DNA of 60,516 bases, filler included, from Sphacelaria rigidula (taxonomy: Eukaryota), in the NCBI GenBank assembly GCA_964200075.2. It is 7 parts of 7 records of this genome, joined end to end, with 100 filler letters (N's around TTAATTAATTAA, not from the genome) between each part and the next. Parts side by side here need not be neighbours in the genome. Positions count along the whole stretch, not along the records: positions 17,323 to 25,883 come from CAXNAA020010779.1; 6 more parts are not named here. One strand, 5' to 3'. The notes under the pieces were generated by a model. The model was not told where the DNA came from and did not search any database. It was given only the letters and a program-made list of their open reading frames with translations. Each line of letters opens with the position of its first letter. The first letter of the stretch is position 1. This document shows, piece after piece, positions 170 to 44,666 of the stretch. The translations under genes and the position numbers were made by a program.

Positions 170-659
170 CCCCAGGGTTGGCGTCGGTTGGCAATGACGC
201 TGTACAACACGCCACTCACCGCATGAGCTAGGCAACCAGGTGACCGTTTTTTCGGTTACTTGAGTTGTTTTTGCGGTCACCATGATGGTTTTCAAGCTAG
301 ATCGTATTGTGTGGGGTGGAGAAGCTGAACTTGAGGCACAGGAGATGATCAGACTACGTAGTGTTTTCATGGTAAAACACCTCTATGTGTGTAACCCATG
401 ACTGCCTCTGGAAGTGGCGATACCAGAAAATGGGGCAATCCGTTGTAGGCTGACATCCACATGCAAGATAACCAGTACGCTTCGGGCAGAACAATGGTAG
501 CAGGATGCGACTCGCCGAACACATCACAGCGCTTCGCGCTTGATTGATGGCGAACCCGGTCCGGCGAAAACCCGGTGTGCTCCGCCCCGATTTTGTAGGG
601 GTGCGAGGTCAATGGCCTTATGATTACGGCATGCAAGATCATGAGTACACCCCCCCCCC
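170..659 (+). repeat. Dispersed non-coding repeat ending in poly(C), longest copy
   Basis: 170-350 aligns with 31035-31220; 430-659 aligns with 52560-52809. The 3' motif GGTCAATGG...TATGA(C/T)TACGGCATGCAAGATCATGAGTACA-poly(C) recurs at 107-160, 3940-4017, 4039-4156 and, reversed, at 4981-5057, 43123-43200 and 51811-51858. Confidence 0.85.
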
Positions 660-1612
660 GCTGAATTCAAGCGGAGACCTGATCGTAAGGGACGCAAGAG
701 TATACATAGATACATATACACGGTTCCCCTTTGGGAGGTTGGTACGGGCCTCCCGCGGGTGACACAAGTCGAAAATATGTAGTGAAGATAAGCTACTATT
801 GTATCACAATGTACAGTAGTGATCGTGGCTGTACAAAACATTGCATGTGCATCGGATGTCGTTCGGAAATATGGGAATTCGGACGGAGGCCGACATCGGA
901 ACTGCCGGGGTAGGGCATGTGTGGTATACCCGAGGTGCCAGAGTGCGAAGTAGCTCTCGTGCCACAAAGACATGACAGCGGGAGGCACTTCCCGGGAAAT
1001 TGGAATGCGTGGAATATTCTTTGCATGTTCTTCGTACATCACTGTGGCCTTCACATCACCGGGCCTTTTTTTAAACGGGGTGATAGCTTTTTGCAGCAAA
1101 ACATCCCTGTGCTGCCGTGCTGCTGTGCCTTGTTCAAGTTGCCAACGGTCCATTGCACGGTCCTGCGTTAGCTGCTGACTAAGGCCAAGGAAATGTTCAA
1201 TTGTTTTCAACTGCTTTGCTCTCATGTTCTCGTGACATTAGCGGCATAGCCGGTGTGTTCGTGCTCCCAAATGAACGAGAACGCGACAAAGGGAAACACG
1301 GGGAAAAAATACCCGGCCAAAAGAAATCCTGCTCCAAGTTTTGCATGATCCAAAAGAGGCTTTTGTGGTTGGGGATTGACACTCCGCGAAAAAAGGCCAG
1401 CTTGAGCGACTTTCGGTGGCCAAAACGCGCGCCACGGGAATCAGATGGCGCCCAAACTTAAACGGTAATGTACCGCTGGACCTTCTCAGTGCGCTGCAAA
1501 AGGAAGCGTGGGAAAAAACGTCTTACCGCAAAAGAAAACTCAGCAAAAGTGGTGAAAAATGTGAAATGATACATGTACATATATAAATATTCGTTTGGCA
1601 CACATGAATAAA

Positions 1613-1713
1613 TACATACGTACATACATACATACATACATACATACATACATACATACATACACACATACATACATACAAACATACATACATACAAACA
1701 TACATACATACAT
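1613..1713. repeat. (TACA)n microsatellite
   Basis: Visible tandem TACA units with a few variants. Confidence 0.97.
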
Positions 1714-2798
1714 GCCCGAAGCTGAATCGGTATCAAAGACAGCAGCATTTGAAGATGCTCACTGGTGCAGATCATGACATCTCGTATTGAAGGGGGAAAC
1801 AGAGCATACTTACTACATACAAAAATACGTACATGAAACTTCAGCATGACATGGTAAAATTGTGGTGCACGTCGTGGGGCTATATATGTGCTACGCGACA
1901 TGTTCCTCATTTCTCCATGGACACACGAACTGCTGCGGTGGGATCTTGGTATTTTGCGGTGGGATGATTGCCCACGCTAACAGTTCACAGAGGTGCGTTC
2001 TCCGCCCATCACGGGTTGTTGAATACTCATCCCTACCGCGATGCCAATCTTTTCTCCTCACCCTATTCAAACGCAAAGATCAACCAATAAAGACACTCCA
2101 ATGTGAACAATATGCGAAGAAGGCTGATTAAAAAAAAAAAAGGAAAAATGGCATCTTTTACATCTACCTGGTACAGGAGAAGATAACTGATCACGACAAC
2201 CAGACAAGTCGGTACCCTACACAACAACGCGGTTGACAAGACGGCAATAAAAGCTTGACCGTTACTTTTTCAACACTTTTTATTTTATATGTTTTGTGCC
2301 TCCATTTGTGTTTCATAAGGCTACACGCTCAAGTTTTGTTTTGTGCCTATCAAAACGCTTTGCAGGCTACCGTACCCAACAAATTCACGGTGAAATGTAC
2401 TTATTTGATTGAAGACCTGACACAGGCATGGAATAGCTTCGGGCACCTGGTGCCATTATTCCCTCCATCTTCATGAGTCGTTCCTCAGCTTCTGCATGGT
2501 TTTTTCTGCTCTTATGTTCGAAGCCCCTTTATCGTCCGTGAGATATTTACACGGGAAAAATGTACGCTCAGCAACGAAAGCAGATCTCCGAAAGTGTATT
2601 TCATATATTGGATGTACTCGCTGTCGCACCGCCATCATATTTTCAATGTCTATACATATACACACAGTTAGTTGGGATTCTGCACACACGTTTCCTTCTC
2701 ACGCAATAGCTGGGTGGCGCTAAATACATACAACAATAACCTAATAATGATAAAATAGTAGGACCAAAAAACGGTGACCGTACTTGACTGTCCGTAGT

Positions 2799-3650
2799 CT
2801 AATGAAGTGTCGGTAGACGCTCAAGATTGATTTCTCCATTAATTGAGGCATTCTCATCGATCGGGGACGCTAAAAAATCGTCCCCGTCGTTGACGATTCC
2901 TCCTCGACCAACCCCCCCGGCCGCACCGCTCCACCCTCCCTGTCGCTCCTTGTGCTTGGAGTTTTGGGCATGTGCTGCACGATCTCGCCTCGACCCGACC
3001 TTTTGGAGCAAGACAACATTTCGGCGTTCCAACAAAAATAAAGTAACAGTATGCAGTACAGTACAGTAACGGGACTCAGCTTGACATAAACGTCGTATTG
3101 TAGGCCAGGCATCACACATATCTCACACCAGAATATTGCTCGAGGATCTTTGAACCTGTGCATGATAAAACGATCGAACGAACCACCCCTGGTTCGAGCC
3201 ATCAAATCTATAAATTCCTGAGGCCTGATTGCTGAAAAAGAGATGAAAACATTAAACGCGGGTTGGAGAAGTAGGTCTAGACAACTTTTGCCGCTATTTC
3301 ACGTGGCTGGGGTTGCACAGCCTGCCTGGGGGGCGAACGCCGAGAAATACAACCAAGGATTGATTCGTACGGTATGAATCAATTTCACTGCTAAGACCCA
3401 TACGTATTGACATTGTTATTTCGGAGATCGCTGAAATTGTCGAGATTGGCAAGGTACCCAATGACTGTCGAATGCTTGCGAGCGCCACGACGTATTCACA
3501 GGGAAGCTCTTCTAGGTGCTGTGTTGCAGTCCGATTTTTTCGGCCTTCTCCGAAAAATGAAGCTTCGGAGAAAAAGTCGAGTCTATTCGCTGTCGGATAG
3601 GCCTAAACGCAGAGTCCGAAAACTCTGAAAAATTCTGATCTCTCTCTCGT

Positions 3651-3681
<31 letters not shown>

Positions 3682-6600
3682 TACCGTGTCGATAATAATG
3701 TTTTATAGCTTGAAAAAAAAACTGAGGTCAAATGTCAGGTGCGTCACGGTGGAGGGATGGGACGATTTATTCCTTGAGACTAGGATTCGTTTTGAGGAAG
3801 TGGGCGCGTTCGAAAACTCCAAGAGAGATAGATAAAAATCCCCCCCCCCCCCACCACCAAAGCTTTTATGTATAATGTACGGAAGAAACATAATGAACAC
3901 CCAAATGTTGAAGGTGTCTCGATTAGGAGTAGGAACGATGCTCCGTCTCGAAATGGGTGCGTGGTCAATGGTCAAATGACCAAGGCGAGCAACAAGTCAG
4001 TATGTCCCCCCCCCCCCTTCGCACTCGGTGATTTATTGCGAGCCTGGTTCGGCGAAACCCGGCGTGCTCCGTCCCAGCTTTCGAGGTATGCGGGATCAGT
4101 GGTCTTATGACTACGGCATGCAAGATAGTGAGCTCGCCCCCCCCTCCCCCCCCCTCGCGTTAATTGATTTGATTTATTGATCGATTGTCCCAGTTCACCT
4201 GACCCCCCAGGGATCCAGCCGTGTTCACATGATAGACATACCCGAGTGTGGAGAAAAACGACGTTTTTTTTTCCACTCTTCATCCAGTCTCTGCACCTCT
4301 CAGAATTCGGAGTGTTTCACACTTCATAACTCGTTTGCACAAGGTCTGGACGGAGTCTACAGACAGTACCTCACCAAGAGCTTGGCACAGTAACGCCCAT
4401 CGTGGTTATGGTAGTGGATTGAAACCAAGTGTGCAGCACCGTTACCACGAGGCAGTCGTGGCATCCCTGCTTACCGCCTGCATCGCAGTGCAACTATTCC
4501 TTTGTGTTTTTCGTAAAAAAAAAAACTTCATGCGCTTGCGATGTTGTGGGTGACAGCGCGTTAACTTACTTAGACCCGTAGACACCCTCCCCCCCCCGGC
4601 CTGTTACTGAAAGATTCTGGAACCATCCGGTCACCGTGCGTGAGATATCAAAGTACGATGGCTTTTGATACTACAATATCGAAGATCTCGGGGTATTTTG
4701 TTTTTCTATTTTCTCGCCATCCTATTCGATGTAGTAACAATATGAAAAATCACAAGTATTCCGTCCATGCGTTTCTTTTACAGATTTACAGGCATGGTTG
4801 AATCATCACAAAGAGATGTGTGTGTGTGTGTGCGCGCGCGCGTGTGTGTATGTGTTCTTTTTCTTGTGAGGAAATCGCCATGCTATTGGTTAGTACAGTA
4901 GACGCGAAAAAAATGGGTACTCACTGTGCGTCGCCGTTTTCCGTCATTGAAGGGGCGGGGGGCGGGGGGCGGGAGGGGGTGGGGGGGGGGGGGGTACTCA
5001 TTTGTCGCTTGCATTAGTCGTTTGATCATTAATCACGCGTCCCTTTCGAGACGGAGTATGCAGGAGGGGCTCGTATCTTGTCCTTGTAGTCAGACCCCAA
5101 CAAGTATAGTCTTGGCTTCGGCTTGCTTGGTAGCGGTTCGCCTCACCTGCGCAGACCGCGTGGCGAGCTTAAGGTCTAGGGGCGAGCCACTTATCTGGTC
5201 CCGTGGCCAACCCTCGCTATTGAGCCCGACGTTCCTCCTGCTACCACCACCCGAGCTGTTTGCTGTGCTGCTACCCTCAATATCGTCGAAACCTGTTGAT
5301 GTGTCACGTTCATGTTCACGTACCGTATCGGTGTTTAAAATATGGAGTTACGACTGCCACACTCTACTACACACACATATACATGTGTGTGTGTAAGACC
5401 TCAGCTAATCGGTGGAATCCAGCATACAGTAAAACAAAAGAACGAGCCGAAACAAAAGAACGAGCCGAAGAAAACAATTGTGTGTGAGATTTTGACATCT
5501 ACAAGATAAGTGGAAATAATACTAACGTGATTCTGAGCTTTTGGGGGGGGAATATGTCAAACGGCTGCGATATTGTCCAGCAAAGCATACGCTGTGGTGG
5601 AACACGACTTATCTCCAGAAATATAATATGGTGTCGACATCATGAGGCAGCGCACGCACGCACACACTGCAACACTGCCGTTCAACGGATGCTTCGGGGT
5701 TTTTGTCTCTGTCATCATCCGCTCAAACGGACCGCAGGGCTATTGTTATTCCTGCCAATCATCTAACCGCCCGCAGGGGGAGAGCTCATAGTATGCGACC
5801 GTCCCTTTCGCCAGTGGAAGATATCACTGATTTACCGGAGGGACGCCACTCCCGCGCGCTTCAGACGTATTATTATAGTACCACCTTCTTATTATTTATT
5901 ATTTTTTATTTGTCGCACTGTGGACCCCTCCCGTTCCTCGGGACGAGTCTGTGGTCTAATTCTCTCAAGGGATCAAGCCATCTCCCCCGGTACACGCCTT
6001 GCGTTTTGGTCTCGCGGATTGGGACATGAATATCAGCACTCCCGCACCGCGTCAACTCACGTCAAACAAAACCCAGTCGACGAGTTCGTTTGCTCACGTT
6101 CTCACGCTTTCCACGGTGAAAACCACATACTACGAAGGAAAAATGCCAACGCATCGGGAATCGAACCCTCGTTCTCTCCACCCTCATGGCGACCGTCGGA
6201 CCACTACACCACCGGGGCGCGGCAACAACTACACAATCTACAGTCTATACAGCGGTCAAGGCTACGCAGTCGACGTGGTGCGGAAGGAAGGACTGATCCA
6301 ACCCGCGATATAGTGCCAAGACGTAAGGCGTATGATGTTAGAGGAGACACGAGCTGATACTTGGAGAAACTACGTACTTTTCCCGACAGAGGGGAGGGGT
6401 TAAAAACAATGCCACGACAGAAGGAAAAACAAAAAACTAAAATCAAGTGCATACATACCGTAGTCTGCTGCGTTTCCGCCCCTGGTGACCCCGACCAACG
6501 AAATAAGTCCACCTTCGCTGTTGGACTGACGCATTTTGAAACCGGCTTTCATCACGTACTTATCTCGAGATCGACCTCGTGTCCTGTATTGTTGAAGGAA

Positions 6601-7475
6601 TGAGCTGGTGCTACTCAGTAGCTACCGTCTGACACCGCGATCACAGAATTGCTAGGTAAATCTGCAAGTACAGCGAAGCTTTTCTTCACGACGTACTGTT
6701 CCTCACGCCATCTGCCGGGTACCTAGTGTTTATGTTGTTTGCTTTGTGTGGCGTTTAGAATGAGCGCCGGGGATACATACATACTATTCGTTGGGTGGTG
6801 TTTTGATTCAGTCCCAGGAATGTGGGATAGATTCTCGCCCGAGGTCGATATAATGTCATACGTTACGCTGTAGGTTGGGTTAACAGCACGTGTGTATTGA
6901 TGTTTCGGTGTGCGTGGATGTATGGGGGTGCGTGTTTGTCGTGTCCTCTGATCATAAAACGGAAGTAATCAAGGATATACATACACGTTACACACTTGAC
7001 ACATTTGAAAAAACATAACTTTGGGTCATTTAACGCTACGGAAGATTCGATTTTGTTGGACGGGACAAATGTAACGTAACGTGATGTGACGCGTGGTCCT
7101 CGAAGCAGTGTCTCCTCAAAAAAAGGATTTTTTTTCCAGATGTAAAAAAAGGCTGTTTTTGTGAATTTGTAACGTGTCACGTGTTACGTTACGTATTCAC
7201 AAAAGCAAGCAGAGATTTCGTCACATTTGGAGAGTGAAACGCTACGTTAGGGTTCATTCGAAGGACCACACGTTACATCACGTTTCGTTACATTTGTCCG
7301 ATCCGAAAAAAAAAAACCTTACGTAGCGTTAAATGACCCGAAGTTATATTTTTTCGAATGTGTCACGTTATAGTGTGACGTGTAACGTGTAGACCCCTGG
7401 AAATAATCGTGTGCGCTCACGGCACAGGGTGGGTCACAGAGATGCGGAAAACGAGGACATCCGCGACGACAAACG

Positions 7476-7534
<59 letters not shown>

Positions 7535-8314
7535 CCTTCTCACCCGGCTCTAGTGTACCTCGAAGAGTTGGTGCCGGACACCTGAAAAAGCAAAAGTCAA
7601 AACAGCAAAAACGAAAATGCACACGTAGGATGAGACGCAAACACGTTCGTTCACCTTCTCGATAACCTGTTATAATGAATGCAAGAGACAACGAAAACAG
7701 GCGTGATGACGTACTGACACTGGAAACGCACACGCGACCATTCGGTAACCCCCATGAAAAATCCCTTGTCGCGATTTTCATCCTCTCGAGGGTAAAATAC
7801 CCTCTACGCTGGAAGGTATTTCATTCCCAGGTGCGGTCATAAACGAATCCTCTGGAGGGCATCTGATGCTCCAGTGACTTCTGAGGTCTGAACCCCTCGG
7901 GAGTAACAAAAACGATGGTGCTCTGGAGGGCCGCGCATCTTCCAAGTTCCTTCGGAGGGATGCGCGGCCCTCCAGAGGCAAAACAAGCCTCCGGAGGGAG
8001 GGCGTTTGATCCCGCCCCCCCTGGAGGGCCGCGCACCCTCTGGAGGCGTTTAATTCCTCTGGAGGCTCGAAAGGTTGACTGCAACGGAATATTTTGGGGG
8101 GGGTAGCCGAATGGTCGCGTGTGCGCGAAGATGGCGTGTCGTCGACGTACAAGACATACATGGAGCATCGTTTTGTTTCAGCACCTGCGATTCGCCGAGC
8201 GACGTGATCGACCCCACGCTGCCGTCGTCTTCCACGCAGCTCCCGCCTAGCGAAGAGGCTGGCACCGGGGATCCTAGCTGACCCGCACTCGCCCCCCCGC
8301 TACCTACGCCGGTC
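2799..8314 (-). CDS. Putative 3' part of a spliced gene, low-complexity Gly/Ser-rich protein of unknown function; exons 8314-8185, 7581-7544, 6517-6459, 5292-5147, 2999-2799
   Basis: Five segments with AG/GT boundaries whose phases chain (2>0, 0>2, 2>1, 1>0, 0>stop) into one open frame: ...GSCVEDDGSVGSITSLGESQ-VSGTNSSRYTRAG-EGGLISLVGVTRGGNAADY-GFDDIEGSS...ATRSAQ-VGSRRD...LERLPTLH*. No homology recognised; the last acceptor (AAG) is weak. Confidence 0.5.
5889..6218 (-). mobile_element. tRNA-derived SINE (family A)
   Basis: The minus strand begins GCCCCGGTGGTGTAGTGG (A box), has GGTTCGATTCC (B box), then a unique body and ends CAGTGCGACAAATAAAAAATAATAAATAATAA (A-rich tail). Confidence 0.75.
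6982..7399. mobile_element. Foldback/MITE-like element with long inverted arms, hAT-like CAGGGG end
   Basis: 6982-7102 is the approximate reverse complement of 7260-7391, with many GTTACG/CGTAAC motifs. The right end ...GTGACGTGTAACGTGTAGACCCCTG recurs as GTGACGTGTAACGTGTAACCGTACCCCTG at 27173-27201. Confidence 0.7.
7476..7535. repeat. (CAA)n microsatellite
   Basis: Perfect tandem AAC units. Confidence 0.97.
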
Positions 8315-8561: not shown

Positions 8562-8661
8562 NNNNNNNNNNNNNNNNNNNNNNNNNNNNNNNNNNNNNNN
8601 NNNNNTTAATTAATTAANNNNNNNNNNNNNNNNNNNNNNNNNNNNNNNNNNNNNNNNNNNN
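8562..8661. other. Artificial contig linker (44 N + TTAATTAATTAA + 44 N); identical linkers at 17223-17322, 25884-25983, 34543-34642, 43201-43300, 51859-51958
   Basis: Six identical 100-nt spacers with stop codons in all frames separate contigs of non-increasing length (8561, 8561, 8561, 8559, 8558, 8558, 8558). This indicates concatenated, length-sorted contigs. Confidence 0.98.
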
Positions 8662-17222: not shown

Positions 17223-17458
17223 NNNNNNNNNNNNNNNNNNNNNNNNNNNNNNNNNNNNNNNNNNNNTTAATTAATTAANNNNNNNNNNNNNNNNNNNNNN
17301 NNNNNNNNNNNNNNNNNNNNNNGCGAATGTATGGATAGGTACCAAGGTGGGAGTGCCCCTCCACCCAGGTAGTGTCGGACTTGGGAAATAAAAACAAAAA
17401 ATGTGTCCCCTAGCTCGACTCTGTACACGAGTCACCCTACCCATCCGGGCGTCGGTCC

Positions 17459-19640
17459 TCAGCTAGGCGCACCGTCCGGTGACATGTCGTCTTCATCGTC
17501 CAGCAGAGTCAGCGGGTCTTTCCCCTTGTCAGAGACACCTGAATGCCGTACAAGGTGGAGCGTTGGCGCAAACTGCATTAAACGGGAACACATTCCTCGT
17601 GGGGATTCACAACCAGAGAGCTTTGCTCCAAGCCATACTGTAAGCCACAAAACTTCGTGTCAGGTCCGCACGAAACGCAACACTTGTAGTGCTGTGTCTA
17701 CTGACCTACACAGTGAACCACCCATAAGCGCTGAAGCGAGTGACTCTTCTTGAAGAAACAACACAAACAAAATCCCGTTTTCCGCTACCTTGTCCCCAGC
17801 TGCCTTCGTCTTCCTCCTCGCTGTCGTCGTCCTCGTCCTCACTGTCCTCGCCCTCACTGTCCTCGTACTCTTTGTCCTCGTCCTCATTGTCCTCGTCCCC
17901 GCTACCCTGGCCCTTGTCCCGTCCTCCTTGCTTTTTCTCCACGCCCCCTGCTCCACCCATTTCTTCTCCACTCCCACCACCAGCCCCTCCCCCCTCCCTT
18001 CGAATATCTTCATCACCTCTCCCATCTTCTCCTCGCCCACTTTTCCTTTCCCCGCTGCCCTCCCCGACCCTGTCCATCTCGTCGTCGCTCCCATCGTCCA
18101 CAAACGCCAAAGGCTCCGTTAATCCCTCCAGTTGGATTCGATCGTCACCAGTTACGTCCGTCGTCATCAGGGCCCCTGTCTTCTCGGACAAGCGGAATCT
18201 GTAGTCGGGCCGGTTGTCGACGATGTCCACAGCTCCCCCTTGCTGCTGGAGACAGACGGAAGGGCCGGCGGTCCAGAGGGCGTTGCAGAACCTTCCACCA
18301 CTCCCACACAATCCATTTTGTTGAGTATCTCGGTGACCTTCCCCTCCACGTCTTGAGCGTGTTCTTTGTCGGACAAACCACCAAGTTTCTTCAGCTGCAA
18401 CGACATACGCATCTCCTCTAAGCTCGAGGCACCAACAAGGTGGCCCTTGATGACATGCTCCTGGGGCAGCAAGAAATGTCGGTCAAGGATCCCGCCGTCA
18501 GATTTCAACTCCACAAGATCCGTCAGATCCCGCAAAGCGTCGTGGGATAGATTCATCGCGCCGGAACCTCACCACCGTGAATCAAAGGAGGCGATATCGT
18601 GCAGGCGTGCACGCCCAGGTACTCCCTACTCCTATCTCCTGCCAAGAGGGACTGCAGGGGTTGTACCGTACAGTGCGCCAGCAGTGAGCAGTACGTAAAG
18701 CAGTCTTGTGCCAAAAGACAAAATTGGAAGAAAATACAGAACAGTACCGTACAAGGTTCGTACCGATTATCATCATCCATGGGGTGTCCCAGAAAATTGT
18801 CATTATCCTTGGGGTGTCCCAGTGGAAATCAGTATTGTTTGCCGGTTTAAGAGAGGAGGCAGCTTGCTTGGTGGCCTGACGTAGCCATGGTGGTGGTGGA
18901 GGCAGTCTCTTATTTTTCTGAGGTGCAGTGCATTCTTGCAGATTCTTACCTGTCGACCCTCTTGCAACTCCCCAGTTTCTAATTCTTATTTCCCCCTTTG
19001 GGTTCAGCACAACAAGTGCTTACCCGTAATGTATAATTTTAAGAAAAAACGAGGCTGAGATTCCTTACTATGAAATTCTCAACATCTGACCCTATCTGTA
19101 CACACCATCACTACGAGAAAAAATCAGAGTGTTTTCCATCGCACCCTGCACCCGACGCCTTCGCGGACCCCGCAGTTGTTGCCATCGCGCTGGGCGGGTG
19201 GCCGAAGGGGTGCAAACAGGACAGCGGTAACTCACCGAATCTGTGATATGCGGCGTAAACACACCTCATGTATCGTTTCGAGCGTTCAGCACTGAATTCT
19301 CCACTTTTCAAGCGTTACTTTGTTCGTGGATTCCTCCACCGTGTCCCACCATCCGGCTTCAAACTTGGCACGTAGATACAGCACAACACAGACAGCATAT
19401 ACGCTGTTCGGCGGCACATGATGGGTAGTGCACACTGAAAGCAGAGCGAACACGGATTCTGGGTTATGCCGTCCATACGCCCTCAAAACGGCGTCTCTGC
19501 AGCCCAGACTGCGCGACATATCGCTGGATGCATGTTCTGACACGCGGGTGCGTTCACTTCCACGTTATGACCTACTACGCAGCTTCTGCGCCGTCAAACA
19601 AACATCGATCTCTGCTGGCACCCATTGTGGATGATGACAT
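17459..19640 (-). pseudogene. Disrupted coding-like region with an acidic Asp/Glu tract, unidentified
   Basis: Protein-like stretches (MNLSHDALRDLTDLVELK...; VDIVDNRPDYRFRLSEKTG...EDEDDDSEEEDE; YAVCVVLYLRAKFEAGWWD...) are broken by in-frame stops and a frameshift near 18250. Splice-like donors are present. Confidence 0.4.
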
Positions 19641-20427
19641 TATGTGCGGTACATATTCTGGTATTGCCTGTAGAGGTCCTCAATTCAGGAGGCACGGTCG
19701 TATAAGCGCTGTTAGTACTTTTAGGCGCTGGAACGTCGTTCTCATGTCATGTAGACTATAGGCAACAACCTCATGTTGCTAAATCTGGGGTTGCGTCGTG
19801 GATGCATGCGTATCGGGGCGAAAAGATGTCGGATTCTGTTCCGAATTGTGTTTTTTTGTTTTCGGTGGAACACTGTCATACAATTTCCCGTAGGGGTTTT
19901 GCCGCGATTGCAAGCGAGGCCTGGTTTGATTGATCAACATCTTCCCGGATGTTCGGTTCATTGACTGCCTGATACCACCCTCCCTTGCGTTAGATAAAAA
20001 TGAAGGCTGGAGGAATGACATAGATGCGGTAGCAAATGGTCATGGTGGCGCTTAATATTTCTTGTCTTCGCATGATGATATCGGACGCTTGCGGTATGCC
20101 TTATGGTTGCTGCACGCGAACTGCACGGTTGCTGTACGAGCTGGGCAAGTCTAGGAGCGGGTCTGTAGATTTCAGGCCAATTTCGAACCCCGAGAGTAGT
20201 TGGACTTTCGGATTTGGTATGAAGACACAGGGCATGTGTTATATGCTAGCATATGATGTGGGCATTTCTTCACTTTTAGGGCTGTGAACTGGCTGCTCTG
20301 GCCACTTGAGTTTGAACTGGCCGCGTCAGCAGCCAGTACATCGATGTTTCCCCAGTTAATCGGCGCCGATTGGCTGGGGAAACATCGGCGGCGTCGAAGC
20401 CGCGGGCCGCAAACAGTCCCCCCGGAT

Positions 20428-20570
20428 AGAGGTGGGTACCGGATACCAAAATAAAAAAAACGGTTACCGGATAAGAGGCGTTATTTTCAAAAACAAAAAC
20501 GGGTAAATCGCTCTTTTTTCAGCCGGTTAACCGGTTCACCGGAAAACTGGTTTAACCTGATAAGCAAGGG
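20428..20570. mobile_element. Probable hAT-type transposon end
   Basis: Starts TAGAGGTGGG, followed by clustered (A/T)ACCGG / CCGGTT subterminal motifs. No partner TIR was found. Confidence 0.4.
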
Positions 20571-21929
20571 AAAATGCCTCCGAATCATTGAAACGCATGT
20601 GAACTAGGCATTCTCGTCGTATGTTTCATGTGTGGTGGTTGATGAATACGCTCAAACAAGCCCATTACCGGTGACGGCAAGGTTCAATCTCACACTTCCG
20701 CACTCCGCACCCGTGCAACACCTGTCGAACTTTACAGCACAGTTATGGGTGCGCCTGACATCCCAAAATGGGCAAAAAAAGTGTCACCGACCAAAAGCAC
20801 GAGCAGACCGGAGATCTCGTTCATCCCCTGAATACGCACGCCGTAATATCCCCCAAAGTACTTGTGCTTTGAATGAGGTTTCCACTCGACGATTTCCCAT
20901 TTTCGTCGTCCCGGGCTACAAACCACGGTGTGCCTCGGCTACTCACCGGCGTGTATGTGTCCAAGCTACAATCTGAAAACATCGTACAACCAAAGGATTT
21001 ATGGTGATCGAGAAAATCGCAAAAAAAAACATGTTTTTTTTTTCACTTAATTTGTTATAAAACTCGGATCCCGATGAGATAAAAGAACCGACCGCGGGAT
21101 TTGTAGCTGTCGTCTTGGCGCAGATGATGCAAAAAATCGCATCCCAGTCGATGACCTTGACGATGAGTAATCGGGGCAATCGTTTTGGCTATGAGCGCAA
21201 ACCAGCGCCTCGAACACTCGCCGGTTTCCCCGACATGCAAAAACCTCACACCTAATAAACGGCCTCAGAATAGATTACACCCATGAATGACTTTTGATAG
21301 TGCAGATATGGTTTATACATCGCATGTGTGGTCCGTACCACACCTCCAACACCCGGCCGTGTACCCGCGACCCTTGTGCGCCCTACGCGCCGATCGCGTT
21401 CACCAGTTCGCGCTACAACCACGCCGCCTTCTGGGAATCTCCCAGCACCTGCGCCTCTGACTCGCAATACACATGCGTCAGATCCGCTCCCGGGTCAACC
21501 CGTTGACGTCGTCATACCTGCTTCTTCGCCCGTGCCACCCCCTCCTGAGTCACCGTGCCTGGTTGGCTCTCCGGCTGAAGGCCAACTTTGGGAATTTCTC
21601 GCTAGCTACTCTCGCCGCGATTGGACTCGCAACCAACAGGAACCGCTCTGCCGTGCGACAATGCGGTACTTGCGGCTTGACTGCCCCACCCCTTTCCCGG
21701 CTGAGATCCTGACCCCCGTAGGCACTCTACCCGCCCCCGCCGCCTCTGACGTGCTCAAGCTGGCACGCAAAGGTACCGTCTTACGACTGACGAGGACGTT
21801 CACCTGCTTGCTCGCCGATCCAACTTCCAATTGGGCACGGCTGCCGCAGTAACAACTTCCACTTCGGCACATATGCGTCATGACGCCCCAATTCGCATCT
21901 ACGTCCCTATCATGATGCGTCCGTAGGTC

Positions 21930-23765
21930 ATGAAAGGCTGTCACTCTGATTTGTCCTGCCACTTAGGCGTCACTCGCACGTTAGCGCTCCTTGAACGTTT
22001 TTATTGGTTGATTGGCATGGAAGCATCCACGCATTTTTGGGTCCGCCGATGTTTCAAATGTCAGGCTCGCAAAACCTCTCGACAAACTGTGCGATGGCCG
22101 GTGATTTCCATGGAGCTTCCAAACCGTCCTGGTCACTTCGTATTGTTCAACTACTTTGGCCCTTTACCCCCAACTGACCGTGGTAATACCTACATTCTAC
22201 TCTTCACCGACCGCTTCAGCCGTCACGCGGCTATGTATGCTGTTACTGCTAGCGATTTCACTGCTGCCGGCACAGCGGACATTCTCGTCCATGACTACAT
22301 TAAGCACTATGGCTGCCCGAAACGGCTCCTCTCCGGCAATGGTCCACAATGTTGCTCCGAGCTCTCGGATGCTTTGTACAAGCTCCTCGGCATTCGCAAA
22401 ATTGCCACAAGCGCCTACCACCCTAACGGTAACGGTGGGACTGAACGTGTGAACCACACGATGGCTCAAATGCTATCCATGGTCGTCAACGACCGACAAA
22501 ATGATTGGGACATTCATCTCTCGCATGTCATGTTGTCTTACAACAATTCACTTAACGCGGCTACGGGCCTCTCGCCCAACGAACTGCATCTTGGACGCTA
22601 CCCTCGTCTGCCCATCACCGTTTTCGAACGACATACCTTCGATGGTCACCAAGGTCTGGAACAGGATCAGATGTCCTACCACGACCTCGCCAGGGCTCGT
22701 CAGCGCAAAGCTTTCACCTTGGTGCGCGAACAACACGCTATCAACGCCTCAGGCCTTGAAAGATCCAATACCGCCCTCTACAACTTGATGCACAAACGCC
22801 CTACTTGGAAGATCGGCGATTGGGTCTGGATCTACAACAGTTTGTCCACCATCCGTCAAGGCGCTGACCGTACTGCCCAGGCAACAGTCTTGAAGACGAA
22901 ATTGTCCCTCAACTGGACGGGTCCGTTCAAGATTCTCATAGGCGGACCCTCGCCGACATCTCCTGACGGCAAGCCCGTTGGCGACAAACTCCTTCACCTC
23001 GATTTACCTCGTGACCTCCAGGGGCACGATGCTAAATCTCGCGTCTCTGTGCATCGTTGCAAGTCCTGCACAAACCCGCATGACACCACGGACATGCCTC
23101 AATACCTGCCTGCAGGTCTCACCCAATATGTGCTTAACAGCTACTCCACCAAATCTCCACCGTACCACGTTACCACCGATGACGTGACTGAACAACCTCT
23201 CCGCTTGGCCGTGTCCCACACTTCCGGCCACCAAATCACTCGAGGTCCTGGCGGCAAAATTGCTGCCATGTACAAGACACACTGGCAAGGTCTTCGGCAT
23301 GCGTCTTGGGAACGCGAGTCCGACCTTCAACTGCACCGTGGTGCTATCCTTCTCTACTGGACACAATCCCCACAGCAACAGCTCGCTGACAACAAGGGAT
23401 ATCGAAACATAAGACGCGGCGCCGCAGCCCGCGAACTCCACCGCGACAAAGGACTACGTTTTGTAGCCGATGGTTACGAACTCGTACCCACCAAACATTG
23501 AGACGAAAATATTCGCGCAAAACAACAACCGCTCCCTAAAGGCGCCTACTTGTGGTATAAGGGCAGCGATTACCTCTGGTGGCTAGGTCAGATCCACTCC
23601 GTCGACGCCCCCGCGGCCGACACATACATCGTGCGTTTCCTCGACGATCCTGGGCCCGTTCAGCTCACGCTTCGCCCCGATTTTTACACGACCAGCCCCT
23701 CCGCACCCCGCGGTTCCTGGTGCCTACAACGCTTCAAGTCACACGGCCTACGTCGAGGCCTTTAG
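21930..23765 (+). pseudogene. Retrotransposon integrase (H2C2, rve core, GPF motif, chromodomain) plus an in-frame C-terminal extension after one TGA
   Basis: HSDLSCH...CFKC; NYFGPLP; LLSGNG; YHPNGNGGTERVN; WTGPFKI; YKTHWQG...SWERESDL. The frame resumes after TGA 23499-23501 and runs to 23765. Confidence 0.92.
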
Positions 23766-24412
23766 TGCAATATCGATCGTACACACGACATCAATGCACC
23801 ATCTTGAGTCCTATCTCTTCGCGCTCCCTTATCGCGATTTTTACCTCCCCTCCCAGTTTGGTTCTGGTACTTCTCTTGTCCCCACTCAGGAACGCTCTAC
23901 TCTTCATTTCTTCACCTACGAAGGCTCTCCTATCGCGGCTCATCGCTGCCCTCATCAACCTATTCGACGACTTCTTCTGGACCCCCTTCGCCTCCTTCTA
24001 TTGGCCCCTACGCTGCCGCCGCTTTGTCTGGCTGGCACTCGACCCTATTCGGGTCCTTGAGTTTTGTCTTCCTGCTTGAGATTACCACTGTGTCCTTTGC
24101 GGGGTTTTCCTTTGCTTTTTATCTAGCTAGCGCGTCAAAGCATTGTGTACTTTTTCCGTTTGTTCGCTAGCTCGCCGCAGCATTGTGTGCTCCTGCGCAG
24201 TCAACCGCAGTTGCGTGATTGCGCTTTTTGAGGCACCTTTGGTTTTTCTTGTTTGAGGTGTGGGAGGATCGGGCACCGGGCTGATCATTACCTCTTGTGT
24301 TTTTTCTTTTTCGCGTTGTCTCCTCATGACTTGATGGGTAAGACAAGCCTCAATTTTAGTTGCTCTTGAAATTTCACCGCAACCCAAATAGAGGTTTGTC
24401 TGGGTGGGTGAG

Positions 24413-24982
24413 TGTCATGAGGAAGGAAGATAGAGAGGCGTTATTTGTTCCTTCAGACAGTTCTGGGGCAGGTTGGCTCACAGATCACTCGATCCAGCCA
24501 TGGGAATGCTCCCATAGTTCTGGGGAAGGTTGATGTACAGGCTACGTTCTATGGAAGATTGATTCACAGACTGGTATATCCTAGCTGGGGAAAATTAGTG
24601 TGCAGGCTGACATGCCCTGGTCCCGAGGAGGCAAACGCCTTCTCGGGCCGAGTTCAGATAGGTTGCGTTGCATGTACCTCATGCACCCTCGCTCACTCTT
24701 GACTCTTGAGCTACCCTTCGAGCCGGACCATCTGCTCCTACTGTTTATTTTTGGTGAGAACAGTGTGCTGGGCGATCAAGGGAATAATGAGTGAGAGTTA
24801 AAAGATATCAAGCCTTTGAGCTCCCTTTGTTTGTTGCTACTGTGACCAACAGTCACGTGAACCTGCACGTGTATATTTGTAGCTTGTTTTACTCGGACAC
24901 ATTGCACCTTGTGAATCTTACAACCTTGCAGTACATTGATCTATCAAGGAAGGTGTGTGGAGCTTGTCCATACCCTTCTTCA
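24413..24982 (+). mobile_element. 3' LTR of gypsy family 3 (right end approximate)
   Basis: Starts TGTCATGA directly after the PPT; aligns to 15426-15911 with an internal insertion. Confidence 0.85.
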
Positions 24983-26273
24983 GTACACTGGCGTTCGACT
25001 GATTGGCCGTGTCTTGCTTGGTTTTTCAGTAGCCCACGCGTGTTCTAATAGCCTTGTTGACTTGTCTAGCTGTCTCTTTCTGTAGCCCACGTTTGCTGCC
25101 CCTCACTTTTGGTACACCCGTATTTTTTCCCCTAGTTAGTAGCAGTTTCAACAGTCCTTCGTTTTCGTTGAGCTTTTAGAGTGCTTTTTTTTGCGGTACT
25201 ACAGTGCTGTCTCCCTGCATTCCTTCAGTTGCATCTCCGCCGCGCAATTCCGCCGCAGCAGCAACAATTGCAACTTGCCATTTGTCCCTCTCCTGCTTTG
25301 ATCGCTCCTTTTGCTGGGCCACACTCTTGCTTTGCAGTGCCCTTGTTCTGTTGTCATCGTTCTTCTCAACCCCACCCAGCGCTGTGTCAGCTGGCTTGTT
25401 GTAAACTCTTGCGGACAGTTAACACTACACCTTACTGAACCGTTACAGAACACGCCGCTTTTATCTTACGGCGAAAGCGACTGTACCTTTTCTCCTTGCA
25501 GGACGTTGACACTTGTGTGCCGTTGCTGTCTTTATAGTGCGGCGTCCTTTTACTCTTGACACTGACTGCTTCAGTGTCTTCATACTTTTTCGGTGCGACA
25601 ATTGCGTAGTCACAACTGCCGCAATAGTAGTTGTGATAGTAGCGACCGCCGCTCCAGCGTGCAGAGTGCTGTAGTGCACACTATTTGTTCTTCCGCGCGA
25701 TAATCTGCATCAACACAATTGATACATTTGCTGCTGCATGTCTCTCATGAGTGCTGCTACGGTAGGGGTGCACAAATATTTTCCGAGGTTAGAATTGTTA
25801 GGAGCCCTTTATCTCATGCAAAACACGACCTATGAAAATAGGTGAAAGTACGCCCGGATTCCTACTCCGATGTGCTGGGGATANNNNNNNNNNNNNNNNN
25901 NNNNNNNNNNNNNNNNNNNNNNNNNNNTTAATTAATTAANNNNNNNNNNNNNNNNNNNNNNNNNNNNNNNNNNNNNNNNNNNNTGACACCGTTTGGAACC
26001 AAATACAAGCGTAACGCAAGTGTGGGAGGATGTCTGACACACTTGTGAGCCTCTTTTTTCTTGCAACCAAATACCTCCCCCCCTATCGCAGGATGACTCA
26101 GACTTACAGTTCAACGTTGCGCGTAAATACATGGTTTTCCGGACGGAAACACCTGCATGAAATGCATGAAACATGGACCACATTTCAGAAGTTCCAAATA
26201 AAACAGTTTATTTGATAAAGATTGCTCTGCTTTGCATCGAGCTTCCATTGTTTTCTTTTTTTTTCCTTCGTTA

Positions 26274-34396: not shown

Positions 34397-34720
34397 GCTG
34401 GTTCAGATTGAATACCCAAAATTTATTCCCCGACTGATGACGAACGCAATACCCAGCCAATATGCACAAATAACAGTGTTTTCGTGAGATTGGGAGTAGA
34501 TGATACGATTGAGAGTGAAAAGCGGTCAATTAGTTCATGAATNNNNNNNNNNNNNNNNNNNNNNNNNNNNNNNNNNNNNNNNNNNNTTAATTAATTAANN
34601 NNNNNNNNNNNNNNNNNNNNNNNNNNNNNNNNNNNNNNNNNNATACTCGTTGAGTTTTGGAAAAACACCCACGAGTGCACTCGTCTAAGCGAGTAATGAC
34701 TCGTCCGACCTGTGAATATC

Positions 34721-34980
34721 TGACACTATCAGTGTATTCCATTGACATCAGGCGCCACTCACGCCAACCGGATTGAATGCCAACAGCCTTGAGGAGTATG
34801 GTGTCCAGATACATGGAAACATCAAACTAACCAGAGCAAAAAATGATGGGCCGAAACCGTCCGACACTACCAGTGTATTCCATTGACATCACGCGCCACT
34901 CACGCCAACCGGATTGAACGCCAACAGCCTTGAGGGGTATGGTATCCAGATATGTGGAAATATAAAACTAACCAGACCAA
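34721..34980 (+). repeat. Tandem duplication, about 142-bp period
   Basis: GACACTA.CAGTGTATTCCATTGACATCA...AAACTAACCAGA occurs twice. Confidence 0.88.
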
Positions 34981-37376
34981 GAAGAAAAAAAAACGTGATT
35001 TCCCCCGTACACACCCTTGAAAATATCCAGCCATGTGAAAACTCCGACTCTCTCGAGCTGGTTCAGAAGATGATCGACGATGGTTAGGATTTCCAACCCC
35101 AGGATCATAGTGACTCCATTGATGTTGCGACGGTTCGCGTCAGCTGTGCTCCACCATTCTTGTCATTCAGGACCGCTAGCGGGGAAGTCCTACTAGACTA
35201 TGACCGTCACTGTTGACCCACCCCCGTGAACCTGTCAGTTTTAATTGGACTTCCTGCGGCAACCCGGGTTGTGGCGGTACGGTCGCTGTTTGCTGGAGGT
35301 CGCACCCGGTCGCAGTTTTGAAAGGGTTCACGGTGCACTAGCCGAGACCTGTTCCGACCACAGAGAGTCGGTGAGAAAACTTGCACAGGACACTCTCCAG
35401 TTTGTCAATAAAATCTAGTCACCGGTGCCAGTGTTTTGCGTATCCATCGGTATGAGTTTCATAATCGCGTGAATGTCCCGCGTTCGTAGCGCCTCGCATC
35501 ACCATACATAGACTGAAGGTGGTTCAGTTGAGTCAGGCTCCACTGAATACACACTTGGGATGACACCCTGGTTCAGCAACCTGAACATTTAAGCGTCACC
35601 CACTGCGCACGATTTCAGAGGCAGCAGCCCCCGTGGACCCGATCTTATACCCGACTGTACTACAACACAGTCAATATCCTCAAGTTCTTGAAGGAAGAAC
35701 CAAATTTCCCGCGTCCACAGTTGTTGTACGAGGTTACCAAGGGAACTCGAATCGTACGTTAAAAGGCCTGGTTGACATCGTTTCACCCGCACGTTCCCGC
35801 GGCGTGACGGAAAGTCACGTAAACGTTTACGTTCACATTGGCTCTTCTTCGCTGGAGAACCCCGCGACCACTTGCTCACCTGACCCGGATGCCCGTTCTA
35901 TCATTCGCACCGTATTTTGTACACATCGGTCAAACTTCGTGCGGGTAGAACCTCCGAGGTCTTCACAGAAAACAAGGAAGGTTTGACGTCATTCACATCA
36001 CGATACGATTTGACGGCGAACTTCGCCCTTCCATTTTGCCCCGCCTGCAATTTTAGTGGCAATAATCCCATCTGGTACGATATGAATGTAGACTGTGAAA
36101 CAGGCGTTTCGCCCGTGTTCCGATCCTTGCCGGGCGAACCTGTTGGCAGGTTCGCGGAGTTATTCACTTAAACCCGCCCAAAGACACGGGATCAATCTCC
36201 CGCAAGGTGTTTCAAGAACTAGCCCTACTCTGAACCACACGCATCAACACCTTGGCTTGACGAACGTCGCAGAGCTGCCGGCAGCAAAGTTACGCACCCC
36301 CATCTCCTGGTGGCCTTCGGTCCCTCGAGCACTAGCACGTTCGTAGTGTCCGACAAACGATTGCAGCATCAGGCTTCCTCCAGCCACCACCGCTATTTCC
36401 GGGAGGAACAATCTCCTGCGGCCTTACGGGATCTGGGAAAAAATAGGATTAATTATACGAGCAGGCGGCCCCTCAGATGTCAAGCAATTACCCAACGGAT
36501 CGAAGACATGTATTCGATATTCTTCAAGTACGTTTCGCCTCAAATCGCTCTATTGTGTTGATCTCGAGCTCCAAGCGTCCACTATCTTAATCATCTCCAG
36601 CCCTGGTAGCTCACCATTTCGTTCTTTCGCCCAAAACTGCGCGGCTTCATTTATTCCCCGATTTGCTTCCTATCCTCACGTTTGATTTTACCCAGATATT
36701 TTCTTTCCCAGAAGAATCTCCATTTTCTGGTTGTTGAGAACGGAATTAACTTCTGCCGATACGAACGATTTTTCCCGTAATCTCCCCTTCATTTCTTCCC
36801 GGAAATGTTTCTTTTTCTTGGCTGTTCGAGATAAAACAGAGCTGTTTTCTAAGGGTGACTACTGTACGGGATGAGTTTCTAGAATGCTCGCATTCACTTA
36901 ACTCCGTGGTTACTTCCGGTACTTCCAGGTTCCTTGTTTCTCGGATAATTATTTTTCGGTTTCTCAGTGAGACCAGACCTGATTTTTGTGTTTGTTGAGA
37001 CCAGCTCGTTGTCACACGCTGGCCACGAAGGGCTTAAAGCTTCAATGCGTGACGTACATGGACGGCCTAGCATCCAAACGCTTCGCAGCACCAAATCAAT
37101 CTCCATTTTCAACACATGCGGGCTTTCACGTGCATTCGAATCCGAGTATTCATGTGCTTAACCCCCCACTCCGACCTGTGCTGTCCCGGACAAGCACTCA
37201 ACACACGACATTGCGGTCAATGATGAATAAATTGATCACTGATGAATTCGCAGCCTTGGCTGAGATCTCTCTCGATGGGCGCCGCGGCGAGAGCCACATG
37301 TGCCTTGAACATGTATACTATATATATATATACATGTGTGTATACGCTATACACATTGGAGAGACGCAAGCCGGTC

Positions 37377-42740: not shown

Positions 42741-44666
42741 ACACGGGTGAAATGTGAAAATGGACCGCCGACGCGACGTGAGGAGAGATCACCCGAGGAC
42801 GGACCGCCACGGGCGGGCGGTCTCATATCGACACGATCCAGACAGCTATGACCACTCTCGTTTGCATCAACCCTCTCTTCGTCACCTGGTCTTGAGGATG
42901 CGCATCAGGCTTTAGGATGCAACTGATATGATATATCGATATGACTCACAACAATACCCCGTAGATCGGAGTACTGTACCATATCCGGTAAAAATAATAT
43001 CCCTTTTATCGGAGTACTGCATCATATCCGCTATATCAACCTTCTTTGGGTGCTGTGGTAGGTCGAGCCTGCAGAAAGAGTGCCGAGAGAGATAAATAGA
43101 GATGTAGAGAGAGAAAGAGAGAGGGGAGGGGTGTACTCATGATCATGCATGCCATAGTCATATGACCATTGAGCTCGCATCCCTAGAATGCCGGGACGGA
43201 NNNNNNNNNNNNNNNNNNNNNNNNNNNNNNNNNNNNNNNNNNNNTTAATTAATTAANNNNNNNNNNNNNNNNNNNNNNNNNNNNNNNNNNNNNNNNNNNN
43301 ACGAAGATTTTAATCCTCCGGGTTCTTATCCTCAATCAAAAGCACCATCCTCAACATAGATGATTGGCTGTTACTTCTGCAAACCGTACTCTAAGGAGCA
43401 ACATATGTTCGATAGTGTCGCAAAGGTCCTCATGGCACACATTGGCTCAGGAGCATACGTTCATTCGTCTAATGTCCATTGTGCTTTCAGTAGCATGTTG
43501 CGTGATGCCGGCGATGGCATTCTGAACGGAGGTTTCCAATCCTGTAAATACTCTTGTGGAAGTAGACCTAAGCTATGGGAGTTTCTCACAATTTATTCCT
43601 CCCGTCATCGTTTTAACCCCCCTCGTCGGTTCGGAATGAGCCCTTTGTATCAAGAAATAAAATCGTATCTTCCAATTTTCCTGCCTTACATTTGTTTCGT
43701 CGGTCACTGGATCATGACTATCAGCACTGTCGCTGCCCATTGACTTCCATCCAGAATGAATTTTCTACTCAAACCCTCGCGCTGTAAGCGACCGGAAACA
43801 GATACTCTTGCAAATGGGCTATTGTGTTCACACTGTATCTGTCGGGATTCGAACTCAGCCAGTCTGTCCAAACTGGCCGTTGCTCTTCCAGTCTGACAAT
43901 GGGAGCGCGACCGCTCTACCGTATCGGTAAACAGGCACAGGTACAGCAGTGAGAGCAGTCAAAGATAGGGGTCGCACACCAACAGCCACAACTTTCTGCC
44001 TCCCCTGCCACCGTCGTCATGGAGTGGTTGCTATGCTGGTGACAACAAAGTACCCATGAAGACCGGCTTCAGATTTTTGGTTGAATGATTGATTGTCTCA
44101 CTTTAACTGATCGGTTTCATAGAAATGGAAAACGTGCTACCCGAGAAACACCGGATTATGTTGTAATTATTATAGTTCGATCCGTTAGACACCAGGAAGT
44201 GTCGACCTTATGCCCAGGGTACTGCTAGTGTGAGACGTTTTCATCACTTCGCGTGCCCAAGGGTTCGAACCACTTTCCCACAGCGAGGCAGTAAACTCGG
44301 GCTGACATTTCGAAAAAACAATATTTTCTCATAGTGCCCGCCCTTCTCAGGATCATGTCAACATCCACAGACAGTTGACATACCTGTGGTCTACGTTGTA
44401 TGATAAACAGCCTCGAATCAAAGACGTTGTTGGAGGAGCCCCTCACGCCACTGCTCATTCGTGCTCATTGCCTGTAGGCCTCATGTGTGATGCGAAACGT
44501 CCGACACACGCGCCTTTCATTGGACATTTGAATTCATAATGGAGAACCGTCGCACAAAGGGGGGGGGCAAACACTATGAGTAATCAAGCTGCCTGCGTGG
44601 TGGACACATGCCCCTCTCACTTTTTGTCCCGGAATACGCAGGTTTCGCATTTCCCACTTCTAGCAG

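Follow-up and report, generated by a model that had tools for sequence, protein, structure and literature searches.

The chromodomains of chromovirus integrases have the accepted role of tethering integration to marked chromatin, and such domains, those of MAGGY and Tf1, are reportedly the subject of work by Gao et al. in 2008. The integrase of human immunodeficiency virus (HIV) is tethered to chromatin in trans, by the PWWP domain of LEDGF/p75. To our knowledge, the readers so far known to be fused to an integrase in cis are single domains. Here we describe the relic of a Ty3/Gypsy retrotransposon of the brown alga Sphacelaria rigidula, lying at about 21562-23765 (+ strand) of a 60,516-nucleotide stretch of seven joined parts of the assembly GCA_964200075.2 (the whole stretch is called the window below). 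Its integrase frame is predicted to end in two different Royal-family modules, a chromodomain and a Tudor-like barrel.

These single readers comprise the chromodomain in chromoviruses and in several stramenopile lineages and the Tudor domain in Ectocarpus Gypsy-10. A study of Ectocarpus transposons (2025, Genome Biology) describes four Gypsy lineages with C-terminal reader domains: three have putative chromodomains, are unrelated to chromoviruses or Chronos and include one that carries NADAR (e.g., Gypsy-12_Ec32), and the fourth, Gypsy-10_Ec32, has a C-terminal Tudor domain that is termed the first Tudor reported on a transposon (PMC12477816). The centromeric lineage ECR-1 retains all three cage aromatics (PMC11541908). 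A PHD reader is reported for some cnidarian retrotransposons.

The family to which the locus belongs has in common with chromoviruses a Royal-family reader fused in cis to the integrase C-terminus past the GPY/F module, but chromoviruses end at one chromodomain, whereas this family adds helices and a second barrel. It resembles the NADAR lineage Gypsy-12_Ec32 in that NADAR is followed by reverse transcriptase (RT), RNase H and integrase in the window's relatives, one of which comes from Ectocarpus (P0227), and it differs from that lineage, as far as the published description goes, in that Gypsy-12_Ec32 is given a putative C-terminal chromodomain only and no second barrel (PMC12477816). Gypsy-10_Ec32, likewise compared by its description, is a separate lineage with a Tudor domain instead of a chromodomain and without a note of NADAR (PMC12477816); here, the Tudor-like barrel follows a chromodomain and belongs to a NADAR-carrying lineage.

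An earlier note on this DNA, made from the sequence alone, was not aware of any description of the architecture and had set it against a chromovirus background. The claim of novelty has to be narrowed, a Tudor domain on a Gypsy integrase being already published (Gypsy-10_Ec32), and what appears to be new, going by PMC12477816, is that a chromodomain and a Tudor-like reader stand in tandem on the same integrase, in a lineage for which a chromodomain alone has been annotated. Full-text literature searches, which did not cover the FASTA libraries and the reader-domain alignment figure of PMC12477816, where the second domain may already be present, returned no published case of a chromodomain plus a Tudor or PWWP domain on one integrase. 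Given the separation of chromodomain-bearing brown-algal Gypsy lineages from chromoviruses stated in that source, the chromovirus framing is not supported, and the element is probably no chromovirus.

Results

The integrase frame and the predicted chromodomain

On the + strand, an open reading frame (ORF) of 524 aa (21927-23501) is followed in the same frame by an ORF of 87 aa (23502-23765), the TGA at 23499-23501 being the sole stop between 21927 and 23765. Translation of 21927-23765 with an X at the stop gave a sequence of 612 residues (P0001), in which both strings quoted by the earlier note, YKTHWQGLRHASWERESDL and LPKGAYLWYKGSDYLWWLGQIHSVDAPAADTYIVRFLDDPGPVQLTL, were found as it had described them, along with the frame broken only by this TGA. 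The GPF motif of the integrase C-terminal domain, NWTGPFKIL (residues 329-337; 22911-22937, + strand), is conserved in the homologue alignment.

An AlphaFold2 model of residues 410-612, built on an 81-row alignment, reached a mean predicted local distance difference test score (pLDDT) of 90.6 and a predicted template modelling score (pTM) of 0.79. It runs from three strands with a helix (model residues 20-71) through a pair of helices (73-98) and one short strand (108-110) to five strands (132-194). The first of these units is predicted to have the chromodomain fold, with strands at 20-30, 36-44 and 51-54 and a C-terminal helix at 55-71, and corresponds to residues 429-480 of P0001 (23211-23366, + strand). 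The model was compared exhaustively with 48,161 representatives of the Protein Data Bank (PDB) by VIA, with 49 chains at Z ≥ 5 and 50 rows listed; each of the 24 listed rows that fall on model residues 1-110 is a chromo or chromoshadow domain, led by Chp1 (Z 6.9, root-mean-square deviation (rmsd) 1.6, 53/55 residues), HP1 (Z 6.5) and Polycomb (Z 6.2). These results, which are predictions with middling Z values, support the chromodomain that had been proposed to follow the GPF motif.

At the sequence level, the Pfam Chromo family (PF00385) scored 12.8 bits in the window (expect value (E) 0.11), below its cut-off of 25.1, and 17.3 bits in the relative L002; Chromo matches at E ≤ 1 were obtained in 18 of the 81 family members, all sub-threshold, with a best E of 0.0016. 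Searching a profile of the family against PDB sequences, we found the Swi6 chromodomain on the first domain at E 0.25, and phmmer of the chromodomain segment against PDB sequences gave no match at E ≤ 10.

A predicted Tudor-like barrel

The chromodomain is followed by a helical linker (residues 482-507; 23370-23447, + strand), modelled as helices at 73-77 and 81-98, and then by a predicted Tudor-like, five-stranded beta-barrel (residues 536-603; 23532-23735, + strand) that carries the motifs WYK, LWWLG, VRFLDDPGP and GSWCLQ. The model strands of the barrel are 132-136, 142-150, 157-162, 168-172 and 189-194, and block-mean pLDDT is 88-97 over model residues 131-200. The segment YEL (23475-23483), the first model strand of the barrel region, lies upstream of the TGA, which means that the stop cuts the barrel module and does not fall at a site between domains.

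Among the 26 listed VIA rows on model residues 104-203, 19 are Tudor, PWWP, chromo-barrel, Spindlin, SGF29, SAWADEE or UHRF1 readers, with Z from 5.0 to 6.5, and the other seven are the small barrels of TraI, Ski2, Pelota, R67 DHFR and UBE2O. The reader matches include Spindlin-4 (Z 6.5), the RDM15 Tudor (Z 6.0, rmsd 2.0, 56/58) and the PHF19 Tudor (Z 5.7, rmsd 2.0, 55/57). When the family profile was run against all PDB sequences, the PHF19 Tudor ranked first (E 0.012-0.015), and the PHF1 Tudor was matched on the barrel at E 0.35-0.71. Foldseek with a model of the tail only placed PHF1 and PHF19 in the lead (probability 0.99-1.00, 27-32% identity over 41-50 columns, rmsd 2.0-3.0), with MTF2, Pcl Tudors and Spindlins also in the top rows. 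Weak leads came from language-model features (Atlas), in which Tudor_3, Agenet and Tudor-knot clusters appeared at 0.84-0.87.

The earlier note had called this second module PWWP/Tudor-like and had named AlphaFold and Foldseek as the means of finding an SH3-like barrel. The barrel of the Royal kind is there in the model, with five predicted strands and the PHF1/PHF19 Tudors leading the matches, but the PWWP label falls away. Past the barrel only about 15 residues with a 4-residue helix (199-202) remain before the natural stop, so that the helical bundle of PWWP domains is absent, and the motif at the PWWP position is LWWL. Sub-threshold Pfam matches in the 81 members are to Agenet (10 members, best E 0.0083), the myosin N-terminal SH3 family (11), PWWP (1, E 0.12) and Tudor_2 (1, E 0.14). 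Taken by itself, the barrel does resemble PWWP barrels (Shuguo PWWP, Z 5.8; DNMT3A PWWP, Foldseek probability 0.99).

Several results weigh against reading the region as a pair of chromatin readers. VIA returned 0 chains at Z ≥ 8, and Z 7-8 is the typical background for a best match; as the Z values may be background, the fold argument rests on the uniform match lists together with the independent sequence evidence. Foldseek gave 0 matches at E ≤ 0.001, whether with the two-domain model against the PDB, with the tail-only model against the PDB or in the BFVD viral models, and the tail-only model has a pLDDT of just 71. The window tail matches no Pfam family at E ≤ 10, and no Pfam reader family reaches its cut-off in the window or in the 81 family members. 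The selection estimates given below are also rough.

The aromatic cages raise a further difficulty. In the alignment to Swi6, whose cage residues are Tyr, Trp and Tyr, the corresponding positions of the family profile are l, w and l, one of the three being aromatic. The cage of PHF19/PHF1 was compared with the tail in the HMMER alignment: Y56/Y47 and F74/F65 pair with tail W27 and F46, both nearly invariant, W50/W41 pairs with a variable position that is Gly in the window, and F80/F71 falls on a conserved Pro, a pairing that was counted by hand past the printed alignment and assumes no indel. By alignment, the barrel cage is therefore aromatic at two of four positions. Other conserved aromatics of the tail (W18, Y19, W26, Y62 and W73, hand-numbered) might compensate for these gaps. 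As both cages look incomplete by alignment, methyl-lysine reading is something that we infer.

The chromodomain, the helices and the Tudor-like barrel in that order had no template among the structure libraries searched, full-length two-domain matches in Foldseek having a query-normalised TM-score of about 0.2, and no retroelement Pol with a chromodomain-barrel arrangement was found by Foldseek in the BFVD viral models. With these points taken into account, we hold the predicted architecture and fold, a chromodomain followed by a Tudor-like barrel, to be very probably correct.

Coding capacity and conservation of the tail

A word-indexed search with residues 400-612 returned 47 proteins of 336-1071 aa at E ≤ 1e-3, 43 of which cover at least 86% of the query at 42-56% identity, across the position of the stop. 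Longer proteins added 12 homologues, including 10 polyproteins that cover 98-100%. With the 87-aa tail alone as query, 1.84 billion representatives yielded 213 proteins at E ≤ 1e-3, of which 57 reached E ≤ 1e-10. Two multi-stretch matches of the tail search, P0105 and P0164, were judged spurious; both are repeat proteins, P0105 with a CHU_C type IX secretion signal and P0164 without a Pfam match. Mean pairwise identity among 21 homologues was 0.71 in the catalytic core, 0.65 in the chromodomain and 0.55 in the barrel, against 0.47 over residues 481-524, which contain the linker, and 0.29 in the ten residues past the stop position.

At the position of the stop, the 80 homologues in the 81-row alignment have W (47), Y (20), F (1), another residue (9) or a gap (3); since predicted proteins cannot contain stops, all that this column shows is that the homologue copies are open there. 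DNA of two metagenome loci extends the observation, L001 having an uninterrupted ORF of 1636 codons from RT through RNase H and integrase to the tail, and L004 an ORF of 2386 codons from NADAR through the tail. We also mapped four public sequencing runs (X1-X4) on 21560-23800 at ≥85% likeness. Between 111 and 2465 contigs mapped per run (about 1,850-2,470 in each of three runs), from which it follows that the family is high-copy. The depth differing from the window letter at 23501, the third base of the stop, was 6258.7/6333.3 in X1, 19876.9/19907.1 in X2, 58664.7/58795 in X3 and 23.4/23.4 in X4. The best run contains just 0.32 of the window's sampled words, so that the mapped contigs are to be taken as sibling copies and do not prove which letter the window itself has.

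Nei-Gojobori counts on the window, L001, L002 and L004 gave, over the barrel and tail, a proportion of nonsynonymous differences (pN) of 0.23-0.31 and a proportion of synonymous differences (pS) of 0.66-0.80 in 6/6 pairs. The ratio of nonsynonymous to synonymous rates (dN/dS) of the tail was 0.15, 0.17 and 0.21 in the three pairs that could be corrected, the other three of the six being saturated, and 0.08-0.10 in the catalytic core for comparison; these ratios are rough since synonymous sites are saturated. The tail is coding sequence that evolved under purifying selection. The expectations voiced before the analysis agree with these data: the domain is under selection across other copies, the segment is conserved among family members, the TGA is a private change in a codon that is most often Trp in homologues and has another third base in nearly all of the sibling depth, and the intact copies L001 and L004 are open through the tail.

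Intact relatives

The polyprotein relatives P0210, L004 and L001 have this C-terminus in common and encode an N-terminal NADAR domain along with RT, RNase H, H2C2 and rve. L004 encodes all of this, from NADAR through integrase and tail, in a single ORF (190-7347), whereas in L001 NADAR occupies a separate ORF (1382-2998) upstream of the pol ORF (3293-8203). RT and RNase H are present in L001, L004, P0210 and P0215, and NADAR in 4 of the 12 long homologues. Relatives with a named source come from Nemacystus decipiens, Ectocarpus sp. CCAP 1310/34 and Undaria, and the Ectocarpus protein (P0227) has the linker and barrel at 48% identity. The family is thus a high-copy Ty3/Gypsy retrotransposon of brown algae whose intact members encode NADAR, RT, RNase H and integrase.

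Two gene models show the linker and barrel of the family in other company: TIMP and WSC are fused to them in P0045 of Nemacystus decipiens, and a kinase and a cyclic-nucleotide-binding domain in P0228 of Undaria. Both models are probably chimeras that gene prediction made across inserted copies, with exon capture as a less likely origin.

The barrel outside integrases

The barrel also ends two ORFs that are not integrases, P0056 (828 aa; residues 727-820) and P0058 (612 aa; residues 497-600), whose N-terminal parts are coiled-coil and Arg/Ser-rich and align with one another at 23% identity (E about 1e-13). A further, unrelated ORF, P0140 (residues 439-622), ends in the complete cassette of chromodomain, linker and barrel. 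The N-terminal parts of P0056, P0058 and P0140 had no match to the polyproteins, the loci or the window, and Pfam found nothing on the three proteins, which may belong either to the host or to other elements. The presence of the barrel in non-integrase ORFs, and of the cassette in P0140, fits an autonomous, portable binding module.

The window copy and other features of the locus

Upstream of the modules described above, the integrase of the window copy begins with an N-terminal extension (21562-21782, + strand) that lies in another frame than the rest and marks the 5′ limit of homology to full-length relatives, the tblastn alignments of the L001 and L004 polyproteins and of P0210 and P0215 beginning at 21562-21574. 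It is followed by the H2C2 zinc-binding domain (21927-22076, + strand; residues 1-50 of P0001), matched by PF17921 at E 2.7e-10 and 40.7 bits against a cut-off of 25.5, and by the catalytic core, rve (22164-22424, + strand), matched by PF00665 at E 3.4e-5 and 24.5 bits, below the cut-off of 32.6; in the relative L004 the same family scores 35.7 bits, above the cut-off. Between the GPF motif and the chromodomain lies a Cys/His segment of the form RCKxC...H (22962-23201, + strand; residues 346-425), with a mean pairwise identity of 0.66, on par with the chromodomain, a nearly invariant C378 and invariant K379, C381 and H414. From this pattern of conservation, the segment may be a small metal-binding or structural element. 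The pol frame closes with its natural stop, TAG (23763-23765, + strand), at the end of the second ORF, and the 1636-aa ORF of the intact relative L001 likewise ends a few codons past the barrel.

The in-frame TGA private to the window copy (23499-23501, + strand), seen against the homologue column and the sibling depth, is one of several lesions. At 21782-21783 (+ strand), a frameshift leaves the window one base short of the sibling copies: tblastn switches frame at 21780-21783, and the extra base after 21782 is present in 1451/1451 of the sibling depth in X1, 2528.8/2554.6 in X2, 4442.1/4515.8 in X3 and 22.8/24.8 in X4. Residue 137 (codon 22335-22337), which by motif position would hold the second Asp of the catalytic D,D,E triad, is G in the window, whereas at least 90% of homologues have D; the letter of the window at 22336 is also missing from nearly all of the sibling-contig depth; as judged by these comparisons, the Gly is a further private lesion. 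With full-length relatives as queries, tblastn found no RT or RNase H upstream of 21562. No direct repeats resembling long terminal repeats were found in 17323-25883 (8.5 kb between N runs), and no second copy of the element elsewhere in the window. The copy is dead because it is 5′-truncated and frameshifted and has a nonsense codon and a changed catalytic residue; it is a 5′-truncated relic (about 21562-23765, +) of a Ty3/Gypsy element with RT and RNase H.

The element lies wholly within the segment 17323-25883, between runs of N, which comes from CAXNAA020010779.1. Such runs occur in the window as pairs of 44 bases, 12 bases apart, every 8,658-8,661 bases (8562-8661, 17223-17322, 25884-25983, 34543-34642, 43201-43300 and 51859-51958). 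A 15-base tandem repeat with 6 in-register copies was noticed within a C/T-rich stretch at 17794-17919, where low-complexity ORFs are Ser/Leu/Pro-rich on the + strand and Asp/Glu-rich on the − strand. Elsewhere in the window, 34791-35236 (− strand) has a weak reverse-transcriptase match, with 26-33% identity to the RT of P0210, L001 and L004, and is a fragment of a different retroelement.

Discussion

The explanation that we consider the best overall, and a probable one, is that this brown-algal Gypsy integrase carries its chromodomain and Tudor-like barrel as a chromatin tether in cis. In this family the integrase continues past the chromodomain and, beyond the helical linker, has a conserved region of about 70 residues, predicted to be a barrel of the Tudor/Royal kind; chromodomain and barrel would act jointly as a cis-encoded tether that biases the insertion sites of the integrase. 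The proposal is drawn from the analogy with chromovirus chromodomains and with the LEDGF PWWP domain acting in trans for HIV. That the two modules would read histone marks and direct integration in this way is suggested by the same analogy, and we put it forward tentatively, at somewhat short of an even chance.

The Polycomb-like Tudors of PHF1, PHF19 and MTF2, which are readers of H3K36me3, are the nearest solved relatives of the barrel by sequence profile and by Foldseek, with marginal scores; the barrel described here differs from them in having two of four cage aromatics and no PHD fingers following. With LEDGF/p75 it would share the coupling of an integrase to chromatin through a Royal-family barrel, and its pattern G..xWxK....WW..xI resembles the strand 1-2 region of PWWP, but here the barrel stands in cis, without a helical bundle and with LWWL in place of PWWP. 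Spindlin, SAWADEE, the UHRF1 tandem Tudor and the CHD double chromodomains also have two Royal-family modules per polypeptide, and single modules of some of them are matched (Spindlin-4, Z 6.5; SAWADEE, Z 5.0; UHRF1 tandem Tudor, Z 5.0), whereas no superposition of the whole module was found, the query-normalised TM-score being about 0.2. As regards the chromodomain, the family, with one of three cage aromatics left, resembles the CRM elements, whose derived chromodomains have none of the three, and differs from ECR-1, in which all three are kept (PMC11541908).

The barrel is predicted more confidently together with the chromodomain (pLDDT 88-97) than alone (71), which hints, at the level of the models, that the two pack together. 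Going further, the unit of chromodomain, linker and barrel could be one bivalent reader cassette, confined to brown algae or stramenopiles, which would respond to several marks in combination or to some lineage-specific feature of chromatin and would give the element its insertion niche; this cassette, or the barrel by itself, would have been passed to P0056/P0058 and P0140. We regard this extension as speculative and doubtful as it stands.

The main rival to a chromatin tether is a non-specific one, in which the barrel is an extra SH3-like domain for nucleic-acid binding or oligomerisation, like the one at the C-terminus of retroviral integrases; it would read no histone mark and would help the intasome to engage target DNA or nucleosomes. 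In favour of this rival, the cage positions are incomplete by alignment; the VIA matches include Shuguo PWWP with ssDNA (Z 5.8), the PcrA/UvrD C-terminal Tudor (Z 5.0), the TraI translocation-signal domains (Z 5.7-6.5) and the barrels of Ski2 and Pelota, the sub-threshold matches to the myosin N-terminal SH3 family occur in 11 of 81 members, and Tudor-containing N-terminal domains of PHF1 have, by their entry titles only, been solved with DNA. However, histone readers make up 19 of the 26 listed barrel rows and the best sequence-profile match, no integrase C-terminal domain is among the 50 listed VIA rows, and the barrel adjoins a chromodomain and ends non-integrase ORFs too, which a portable tether fits better than a part of the intasome. 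We consider this rival unlikely.

Very improbable, in our view, is that chromodomain, helices and barrel are a composite module that docks on some host protein other than a histone, such as a centromere or replication factor. The gain in barrel pLDDT from 71 alone to 88-97 in the two-domain context (pTM 0.79), the incomplete state of both cages and the joint occurrence of chromodomain, linker and barrel in P0140 would all suit such a module, and the targeting of chromodomain-bearing elements is left open in the brown-alga centromere papers. Against it, the order of the two domains has no template (query-normalised TM-score about 0.2), P0056 and P0058 carry the barrel without a chromodomain, and no partner is known. 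The last alternative, that the ORF past the stop is open by chance or belongs to the 3′ untranslated sequence and resembles readers by accident, could draw on the position of the tail past a stop in the window copy and on its lack of a Pfam match at E ≤ 10, but is scarcely credible, being refuted by the 213 homologues at E ≤ 1e-3, the stop column, the continuous ORFs of intact copies, a pN well below pS, the sibling depth that marks the stop as private, and the confident model.

Returning to the cis tether, integrase-reader fusions are the clearest natural cases of transposons choosing their landing sites, and they serve as models for engineered targeted integration. The targeting hypothesis is directly testable because the family is high-copy and because, for brown algae, curated transposon libraries and histone maps from chromatin immunoprecipitation exist. 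Taken alone, the copy in the window is ordinary junk, and its value lies in the family architecture that it exposes. If the reading proposed here is true, the family would be the first case of a transposon with a potentially combinatorial way of reading chromatin, through two distinct Royal-family modules placed in tandem on its integrase, and the bivalent cassette, if it exists as such, would be a portable chromatin-tethering module common to transposons and possibly to host genes.

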